From Escherichia coli (lineage in GTDB: Bacteria > Pseudomonadota > Gammaproteobacteria > Enterobacterales > Enterobacteriaceae), in the NCBI RefSeq assembly GCF_003334355.1, contig NZ_QOWP01000006.1: 64,000 nt of DNA, one strand, 5' to 3'. This document shows positions 5,757 through 7,070 of the stretch, one piece after another (within the stretch, counting starts at the first letter, position 1; each line of letters opens with the position of its first letter). The notes below the pieces were generated by a model. The model did no database searches, was not told the DNA's origin, and saw only the letters and a list, made by a program, of their open reading frames with translations. Made by a program: the position numbers and the translations under genes.

Positions 5757-6017
5757 ATGCTTGAACATTTTGGAGCCGAAGCTTCGGTATTAGACATGAC
5801 GATTATTGTTCGTTCAAATCCGAGTAAAGCCGCTATTCTTGAAGAGTTTTTACATGGTACACAAGAGAAACTAGGAATAGCTGAAAAATTAGGACGTTAT
5901 GGACTAGGGAGTGCAGAAACGCACGTTAAGGATTTCATGATAAGACACAAAAAAATGCTTGGGTTATCTGATGAGGATGTAGCAATACTCAAAATATTGA
6001 AAGACAAGGGGTTGTGA
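5757..6017 (+). CDS. hypothetical protein, candidate Rhs-CT immunity protein
   Basis: 86-aa ORF 32 bp downstream of rhs stop, in low-GC DNA; stop overlaps the next ORF start (GTGATG); no recognisable family. Confidence 0.4.
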   Translation: MLEHFGAEASVLDMTIIVRSNPSKAAILEEFLHGTQEKLGIAEKLGRYGLGSAETHVKDFMIRHKKMLGLSDEDVAILKILKDKGL

Positions 6018-6304
6018 TGAATATAATTCTGCCGATAAAAGATATATTTATTATTGCGGGAAACATAGTTTTTAGCGTTTTATACAATGAACATCTTGAG
6101 TTCCCATGCCGCTGCCAATTACTATCTTCAAATTCTGAAGTTATGCAAGAGTTATATATTGAAAAAGAGTTATTTATTAAACGCACTACGGAAAATGATT
6201 GTCGTGCTTTAGTGTTAAGAGGAACATTGGAATACTTATTTGATGAAATTATTGCTGGCGAGTGTGCATTGGCCTTATTACAAAAAGAAATAAAAAAAGA
6301 TTAA
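6014..6304 (+). CDS. hypothetical protein, upstream part of an ORF interrupted at an A7 tract
   Basis: 96-aa ORF translationally coupled to the previous ORF; stop lies just after A7 run 6292-6298; open frame continues in the +1 frame to 6590. Confidence 0.35.
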   Translation: MMNIILPIKDIFIIAGNIVFSVLYNEHLEFPCRCQLLSSNSEVMQELYIEKELFIKRTTENDCRALVLRGTLEYLFDEIIAGECALALLQKEIKKD

Positions 6305-6590
6305 TCCAATATGTAGAACGGGACAATACCCATCTTTTAACAATGAACTTCGTAATTTTTATCTTAGAAATAATGCTACATTATATGAGGTATATCATGA
6401 GGTAAAAAATGTTAACAAGGGAGTTGGCCTGGTGGGAGATAATGGTATCGTCCTGGTAATTAGAAGTTCCAATTCCAAAAATACACTTGAGGAATTTCAT
6501 GAATTCTTTGGAAACTTCAAACCTAATAATTCAACAGCTCGAGTTGAAGTGATTGATCAATCCGTTTTAGAACCTTTTTGGAGATTTTAA
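6294..6590 (+). pseudogene. start-less open frame continuing the 6014-6304 ORF after a +1 shift at the A7 tract (or small GTG-initiated ORF from about 6440)
   Basis: ~99 sense codons with no in-frame ATG; frame opens right after the A7 tract; internal AAGGGAG-N8-GTG could start a ~52-aa product. Confidence 0.3.
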
Positions 6591-6594
6591 AAAT

Positions 6595-6792
6595 ATGATC
6601 ACCAAATCAAGTATACTCATAGAGTATAAAGATAAAAGTAAACTAACCGATAGTATTTATAAGTTTGTAAATGCTCTAGACATTGACTTTTCGATATTAA
6701 AATATGACTACTTTGATGTAAATGAGTATAAAAAAACATTACTTATGACACATCTTTTATTGACAAAGATGCAGAATATATTGAATTACTAG
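6595..6792 (+). CDS. hypothetical protein, upstream part of an ORF interrupted at an A7 tract
   Basis: 65-aa ORF with GGAG upstream; A7 run at 6730-6736; the -1 frame stays open from 6732 to 7070. Confidence 0.35.
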   Translation: MITKSSILIEYKDKSKLTDSIYKFVNALDIDFSILKYDYFDVNEYKKTLLMTHLLLTKMQNILNY

Positions 6793-7070
6793 CGAAGATT
6801 GATTTTTCTTATGAAGTTGATTTCGGCACATCAACAACATCGATTGAAAGCAAGTATCTTCCATCTCTAACTGATTTCATCGCTCAATCACTATCACAAC
6901 AATTAAATTGTGACATAATAACCAGCTTTAAACCATTAAGTGGAGATGAGTTTTGCCCAATAACATATTTTTCAAAAGGTAAAGAAGTTATCAATTTTAC
7001 GACATTTAATTCAAATTGTTGGGATGGGGTATGCTGGGTAAAAAAAAGGAGGCAAACAAATATCCGCTAA
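6732..7070 (+). pseudogene. start-less open frame continuing the 6595-6792 ORF after a -1 shift at the A7 tract
   Basis: 112 sense codons without in-frame ATG, directly overlapping the end of the previous ORF at an A7 run. Confidence 0.3.

Follow-up and report, generated by a model that had tools for sequence, protein, structure and literature searches.

The region at positions 5757-7070 of a 64,000-nt stretch of Escherichia coli DNA (NCBI RefSeq assembly GCF_003334355.1, contig NZ_QOWP01000006.1; the whole stretch is called the window below) lies behind a gene for an Rhs effector of a type VI secretion system (T6SS), and holds a row of small open reading frames (ORFs) together with two runs of seven adenines (A7). 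We consider it very probable that the region represents the 3' end of a T6SS Rhs effector locus that has degenerated and that was built by displacement of C-terminal tips. Loci of this kind are well known, and this one is an unremarkable, decayed example, which displays ordinary gene decay and no genetic switch. An original prediction, made from the sequence alone, had described two consecutive ORFs as each interrupted at an A7 run, and had offered phase-variable or slippage-dependent expression of immunity-like proteins, recent pseudogenization or homopolymer sequencing error as possible explanations. The elements under discussion are as follows:

5589-6017, + strand: CT1, variable C-terminal Rhs toxin domain; ORF 5757-6017 is its C-terminal 86 aa
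5663-5666, + strand: G4 run, the −1 frameshift that parts CT1 from the Rhs body; G5 gives a continuous ORF to 6017
6017-6304, + strand: I1, presumed cognate immunity gene of CT1, 95 aa, complete (WP_001021473.1); identical in strains with an intact Rhs-CT1
6292-6298, + strand: A7 tract 1, Lys-Lys codons of the I1 C-terminus (...KEIKKD, then stop), from a census of genomes and contigs
6305-6403, + strand: segment Y, a 99-nt filler, open in two frames, bounded by the homology break at 6403/6404
6404-6590, + strand: what is left of CT2, a displaced Rhs toxin tip (its last 62 codons), 98.5% identical to full-length Rhs 3' ends
6595-7070, + strand: I2, orphan CT2 immunity gene, a pseudogene by a 1-nt deletion from A8 to A7; the A8 allele is a 158-aa ORF (WP_000629024.1)
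6730-6736, + strand: A7 tract 2, the frameshift site of I2, from an allele census

Both A7 runs lie where the original prediction had placed them, and so do the two start-less open frames that it had reported behind the ORFs, at 6294-6590 (+1 frame) and 6732-7070 (−1 frame). These frames open inside the two runs because TAAAAAAA has a stop in one frame. The statement that the ORFs end at or next to the runs is correct for the first, 6014/6017-6304, whose stop lies 4 nt past tract 1. It is not correct for the second, 6595-6792, which ends 56 nt past tract 2 as an out-of-frame read-through. Likewise, the proposed interruption of a gene is real at tract 2, where I2 is broken, and absent at tract 1, where I1 is complete.

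The older, displaced tip can be recognized by comparison with other strains. From 6404 to 7124, the window is 98.5% identical to the end of a full-length Rhs gene together with the 158-aa ORF downstream of it in strains 4621, MS 69-1 and DETEC-S792, whose copies sit at the same chromosomal vgrG-nfrB locus and have A8 at tract 2. The break in homology with CT2 at 6403/6404 is sharp, with no rhs or CT2 homology upstream of 6404 in the window. CT2 homologues keep the stretch MADFT.DG.Q.DTK...GGNAAKN upstream of the break point; the window is without this stretch, and the remnant is without the conserved D...D-x-K region. Family searches with CT2 gave a weak match to CdiA_C (E 0.14) and nothing else.

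Behind the remnant, I2 is split in the window into 47 N-terminal codons in one frame and 112 C-terminal codons in the −1 frame. Homologues of I2 in Proteus mirabilis (156 aa) and in a metagenome contig (151 aa) are single ORFs that lie 3-4 nt after CT2 homologues. They are 49-52% identical to I2 from end to end (E about 1e-54) and align across the position of the tract with no homopolymer there, reading GAATATAAGTTT and GAATATAAAGAG at the equivalent site. Searches of Pfam, NCBIfam and PDB with I2 gave no match. Since the intact A8 alleles specify a single protein of 158 aa and the homologues are single ORFs, I2 is a pseudogene here. Tract 2 is a true inherited frameshift, and of the explanations first offered, pseudogenization is supported for tract 2 only.

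The distribution of tract 2 alleles was determined in 568 complete genomes, which gave A7 followed by C at 6737 in 492, A7 followed by T in 17, A6 in 21 and A8 followed by T in seven. A8 was found only in the seven genomes where I2 adjoins a full CT2, and there it gives the single 158-aa ORF; in the orphan context, it was found in none of ~560 complete genomes and 49 metagenome contigs. These contigs, picked out by a pattern search keyed to the junction that is specific to the orphan copy, all have A7 at tract 2 (49/49). The haplotype with A7 and T at 6737 occurs with G5 in 14 of 17 genomes, which fits one ancestral inherited deletion with later changes after it. As a separate observation on the A6 allele, the 112 C-terminal codons of I2 are then in frame with an ATG at 6723, and the NCBI annotation pipeline (PGAP) has a 115-aa protein there, an N-terminally truncated I2 (WP_071826989.1).

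Some A6 and A5 calls come from assemblies ridden with homopolymer indels, those of strains G4/9, G5 and C311. The fused ORFs of these three assemblies were considered as candidate 'ON' alleles and rejected, given 8-17 indels, mostly of homopolymer length, over ~3 to 6 kb. The sole A5 case comes from an assembly that has 12 homopolymer indels within 3 kb.

I1 differs from I2 in that tract 1 lies in the final codons of a complete gene and interrupts nothing. The overlap of 5757-6017 with 6014-6304, which the original prediction had described, is present: the CT1 stop and the I1 start overlap as TGATG, with a GTG/ATG start at 6014/6017 (TTGTGATG). I1 is the presumed immunity gene of CT1: a position directly after the toxin, with such a stop/start overlap, is usual for immunity genes. 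CT1 and I1 always co-occur in E. coli, and the strains with an intact Rhs-CT1 have an identical 95-aa I1 with A7. Over a 67-nt span, tract 1 is matched with at least 99% identity in 527 of 546 genomes; some of these matches are trimmed by single-nucleotide polymorphisms (SNPs) near the query ends, and A7 is present in each matched stretch. It is also A7 in 48 of the 49 metagenome contigs. An exact A6 was found in one clean complete genome, EC6563, and in one metagenome contig; in EC6563 (956-1528 of the locus sequence compared), it joins I1, segment Y and the CT2 tail into a 190-aa ORF (WP_001021474.1). At tract 1, then, orthologues keep A7 and the frame downstream is the tail of an unrelated toxin, so that the original prediction fails here on its own terms.

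I1 is the only element of the region that is likely still functional: it would be expressed, and would protect its host as stand-alone immunity against kin that fire CT1. Searches of Pfam, NCBIfam and PDB with I1 gave no match, and a phmmer search of 1.84 billion representative sequences returned only I1 itself, fragments and chimeras. Two apparent longer versions, of 137 and 149 aa, were rejected, as they come from low-coverage contigs that were assembled chimerically, with the join at the A7 run; one such contig with an 'extended I1' runs on into a Gram-positive PrsA-like lipoprotein. Chimeric metagenome joins that fall exactly at the I1 A7 run have in this way placed spurious 'extended' proteins in protein databases.

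The start-less frame behind I1, 6294-6590, is foreign DNA, composed of the 99-nt filler and the tail of the other toxin, and no continuation of I1. Segment Y is a constant companion of I1. A search for protein homologues of Y returned only error-laden E. coli ORFs, and attempts to trace its source found none.

The newer tip begins at the end of the rhs core, which reads ...YYEPESGMYLVSDPLGLQGG...NPLRWIDPLGL at 5500-5615 and contains a PxxxxDPxGL-type motif. Homology between rhs alleles stops at 5588, and at the same boundary between core and tip the GC content falls from ~0.62-0.65 to ~0.32 (at ~5590). In strain SC406, rhs is one uninterrupted ORF of 1603 aa that ends exactly at window position 6017. 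Across CT1, its sole difference from the window is G5 versus G4 at 5663-5666, and the identical 95-aa I1 with A7 follows. G5 is present in 20 complete genomes and G4 in ~538. Relative to the intact SC406 allele, the rhs gene of the window has, in addition, a 67-nt deletion at ~3348. At this deletion (~3343-3351), the BLAST segments have 9 nt in common where they join, and this overlap hints at a short direct repeat.

CT1 extends for ~130 aa after the DPLGL motif and has 118 homologues with 50-70% identity in many phyla. All 118 cross the position of the G run and end at ...LRDKGL, the same end as ORF 5757-6017. ORF 5757-6017 is no immunity gene: it makes up two-thirds of CT1, at the C-terminal side of this Rhs toxin domain, and is severed from the rest by the change from G5 to G4. 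This severed toxin fragment had been missed by the original prediction. Among the ORFs taken together there as immunity-like, 6017-6304 and 6595-7070 fit the description; 5757-6017 and 6294-6590 are better described as toxin fragments.

The invariant positions of CT1 include the motif EEFLHGxQ, E101 and K105, and H103 is nearly invariant. The homologues occur fused to VgrG, PT-HINT and Rhs contexts, and CT1 has the character of a conserved domain of the polymorphic-toxin type, which would probably be toxic. Sequence searches of Pfam, NCBIfam and PDB with CT1 gave no match. An AlphaFold model built with 40 sequences is confident (predicted local distance difference test, pLDDT, 86; predicted template modeling score, pTM, 0.77); its predicted fold resembles zincin-like metallohydrolases, and a Foldseek search with the model found no PDB match. 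In Agaribacter, an unrelated 87-aa ORF lies next downstream of the CT1 homologue.

From the observed homologies, junctions, allele distribution and intact alleles, we infer the following order of events. A CT1-I1-Y module, consisting of a toxin tip, an immunity gene and ~100 nt of flank, would have taken the place of the 5' portion of a CT2 tip that was there before. The left crossover would lie within the conserved core of rhs, at ~5588, and the right junction is at 6403/6404. The last 62 codons of CT2 and I2 would have been stranded downstream. I2 would then have lost one A from an ancestral A8, a frameshift inherited by essentially all strains with the orphan copy, and some strains may later have slipped on to A6. 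Rhs itself probably decayed afterwards in most carriers, here through the 67-nt deletion and the change from G5 to G4. The A7 of I1 would be the chance coding of a lysine-rich C-terminus, and I1 was presumably kept as stand-alone immunity against the minority of strains with a functional CT1.

Several points weigh against this history. The natural length of I1 is taken from its context and not from family comparison, because there are no informative I1 homologues. Segment Y is not accounted for by this history, and the frame of Y that leads on into the CT2 tail is open, which has a chance of ~4% for 37 codons at this composition. The CT2 remnant is without the conserved piece of rhs core that typical orphan modules retain. 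Furthermore, all CT2-bearing full-length or long Rhs genes examined (three, all from E. coli) have an internal stop, and none of these three has a demonstrably active CT2.

Some of these points would also favor a history in which I1, too, is damaged: a formerly longer gene, comprising I1 and Y and read through at A6, would have been cut at 6404 by recombination and then frameshifted by one additional A. The frame in which Y is open is the one reached by A6, Y never parts from I1, the A6 allele exists in a clean genome (the 190-aa ORF of EC6563) as well as in a metagenome contig, and there are no homologues against which the length of I1 could be checked. We nevertheless find this unlikely. Strains with an intact, presumably dangerous, Rhs-CT1 have the 95-aa A7 form, and the fused product would finish in a fragment of a foreign toxin. 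Y is open in a second frame too, so its openness may be compositional. Finally, the two tracts are of equal length and in the same genomes, and exact A6 is seen once at tract 1 versus 21 times at tract 2; this suggests that the frame at tract 1 is under selection, with the limit that the alleles may not be independent events.

It is quite improbable that low-level, non-programmed slippage on the A7 runs has a physiological effect, either through a trickle of wild-type I2 or through a minor isoform of I1 with a 36-residue hydrophobic extension, made at the in-phase heptamer that lies two codons ahead of the I1 stop. Were it to occur at tract 2, the slipped products would supply a trickle of I2 immunity against CT2-armed competitors.

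It is very unlikely that the A7 alleles are recoded into full-length products, whether by a programmed −1 frameshift of the ribosome or by slippage during transcription. The wild-type I2 sequence, ...EYKKNITYD..., would be restored exactly if the ribosome shifted by −1 past the two Lys codons of tract 2 or if the mRNA gained one A, and tract 1 is an in-phase A_AAA_AAA heptamer. However, tract 2 reads TAT AAA AAA ACA, in which the heptamer is out of phase for X_XXY_YYZ, and a −1 shift at tract 1 leads into a 36-codon frame ending at 6405, whereas the long frame is the +1 frame. The folds downstream of the two tracts are no better than those of shuffled sequences (z +0.76 and −0.03), the fold of a 71-nt segment across tract 2 has only a marginal advantage over shuffles (z −1.78), and by inspection there is no Shine-Dalgarno-like element upstream at the usual distance. 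A scan of the region with Rfam gave 0 family matches. The two-frame layout is not conserved, as the homologues and the A8 alleles are single ORFs. Runs of 7 nt are also below the ~9 usual for transcriptional slippage; selection against such slippage is typically visible at runs of ~9 (PMC1088944).

Phase variation, in which the A runs would act as contingency tracts and replication slippage would toggle immunity genes within populations, is in our judgment exceedingly improbable. The length of tract 2 does differ among genomes (A6 in 21, A7 in at least 509, A8 in seven), A6 occurs on at least two haplotypes in otherwise clean assemblies, and the tract lies within the 5' third of I2. Yet the in-frame allele is missing from all the orphan copies surveyed, and A8 is confined to a different array with a distinct haplotype (T at 6737). 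A6 is out of frame just as A7 is, and the single A5 comes from the indel-rich assembly described above. The tract is not shared by the I2 homologues. Tract 1 is near-invariant, and a change there would merely join I1 to a toxin remnant. The suggestion of phase-variable or slippage-dependent expression in the original prediction is therefore not supported, with no A8 in the orphan copies, a tract that is not conserved, no stimulatory structure and a run that is too short.

Sequencing or assembly error, with a true A6 or A8 and intact genes, has practically no chance of being correct: the assemblies with fused ORFs at the tracts (G4/9, G5 and C311) are the indel-ridden ones, and A7 at both tracts is present in ~500 independent complete genomes, which come from many laboratories and count REL606 and ATCC 8739 among them, and in 48 of 49 short-read metagenome contigs.

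Two calculations bear on the pattern of ORFs and runs itself. Shuffled sequences gave such ORF pairs in 0 of 2000 cases, a test that shows only that real coding sequence exists and is uninformative, as shuffled AT-rich DNA has no long ORFs. There are four runs of at least seven A or T in 1.35 kb, and by our own estimate a gene end within ~12 nt of one of them is a coincidence of ~7%.

The region under study is the end of a vgrG–DUF1795–PAAR-rhs island flanked by cusS and nfrB. Compared with E. coli PSS-12 (NZ_AP027697.1, from position 1683401), the window has nine SNPs and no indels over 12 kb. The annotation of PSS-12 gives the gene order as the vgrG 3' end, a DcrB-related/DUF1795 gene, PAAR-rhs, two hypothetical proteins, ISAs1, nfrB and nfrA. 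The neighboring features are as follows:

25-765, + strand: 3' end of vgrG, the T6SS spike gene, from the PGAP annotation of the near-identical PSS-12 record and the ORF list
793-1254, + strand: DcrB-related/DUF1795-type effector accessory protein, annotated as WP_001160804.1
1274-5724, + strand: PAAR-Rhs effector gene, a pseudogene here, from alignment to the intact allele; 'frameshifted' in PGAP
7269-8405, + strand: ISAs1-family (H-repeat) transposase at the boundary of the array, from the ORF list, comparison with other arrays and the PSS-12 annotation

Homology to other arrays stops at ~7124, before the ISAs1 transposase. About 10% of the complete genomes of E. coli have the array, those of REL606 and ATCC 8739 being examples. 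A paper on the T6SS of enterotoxigenic E. coli (PMC10761095) does not describe it. Promoter and terminator scans of the region found nothing above chance.

Two further observations concern the flank. Seven of the nine SNPs between the window and PSS-12 are grouped within the ISAs1 transposase, at 8039-8171, which suggests exchange between copies of the insertion sequence or a different copy. In nfrB (8676-10912), a 1-nt deletion after 10240 (CAATG-TGATG), at a site that is not a homopolymer, splits the gene. Among 5045 genomes that have this stretch, the deletion is shared by PSS-12 only. It would lead to loss of the NfrB glycosyltransferase, which is required for adsorption of phage N4.

These results provide a usable annotation for a region in which RefSeq gives two "hypothetical proteins" followed by 960 unannotated bases: in the PSS-12 record, no gene is annotated at 6305-7268, between the second hypothetical protein and the ISAs1 transposase. 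They also show a Rhs-CT1 weapon that is dead in ~96% of its carriers with its immunity gene I1 intact, and an older I2 that is dead in all carriers. The CT1 family is widespread, well conserved and without a family assignment, and it may merit characterization in its own right. More generally, where start-less frames are found at homopolymers behind rhs, displaced tips and decayed orphan immunity genes should be the first suspects, before recoding or phase variation.

Among known systems, homopolymer contingency loci such as those of Neisseria, Haemophilus and Campylobacter are similar in having, here as poly-A, a run inside a coding region, with some length polymorphism between isolates. They differ from the present locus, which has no ON alleles in the orphan context, a tract of 7 nt and no conservation of the tract in homologues. 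E. coli is not known to make wide use of homopolymer phase variation.

The −1 frameshifting of the dnaX and insertion sequence type, and poly-A slippage (PMC5009743, PMC1088944), share with this locus an A-rich slippery run where two frames overlap, and slippage here would restore wild-type I2. Unlike in those systems, there are no stimulators, tract 2 has the wrong phase and tract 1 the wrong −1 frame, the runs are shorter than 9 nt, and the layout is not conserved.

A closer likeness is found in the orphan rhs-CT/rhsI and cdiA-CT/cdiI modules, reportedly described by Poole and colleagues in 2011 and by Koskiniemi and colleagues in 2014. The arrangement of orphan rhs-CT/rhsI modules, a toxin-tip remnant and a small downstream immunity gene behind the main effector, is the one seen here. 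Functional orphan modules retain both an intact immunity gene and core homology through which they can recombine onto the main rhs. Immunity genes may persist after the toxin is lost. In the window, by contrast, the toxin remnant is too short for reactivation, and I2 is frameshifted.

For Enterobacteriaceae, Jackson et al. (2009; PMC2935791) describe rhs loci as arrays in which the tips are displaced and often carry frameshifts. The present locus departs from those arrays in that its CT2 fragment is without core, has lost its 5' half and is joined through the 99-nt segment Y. In other respects it is like them. AT-rich tip fragments and small ORFs stand behind a full-length rhs, and the fragments are start-less and frameshifted. 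At one and the same locus, a tip that some strains have joined to rhs is displaced in other strains, and the array ends in an ISAs1/H-repeat element.

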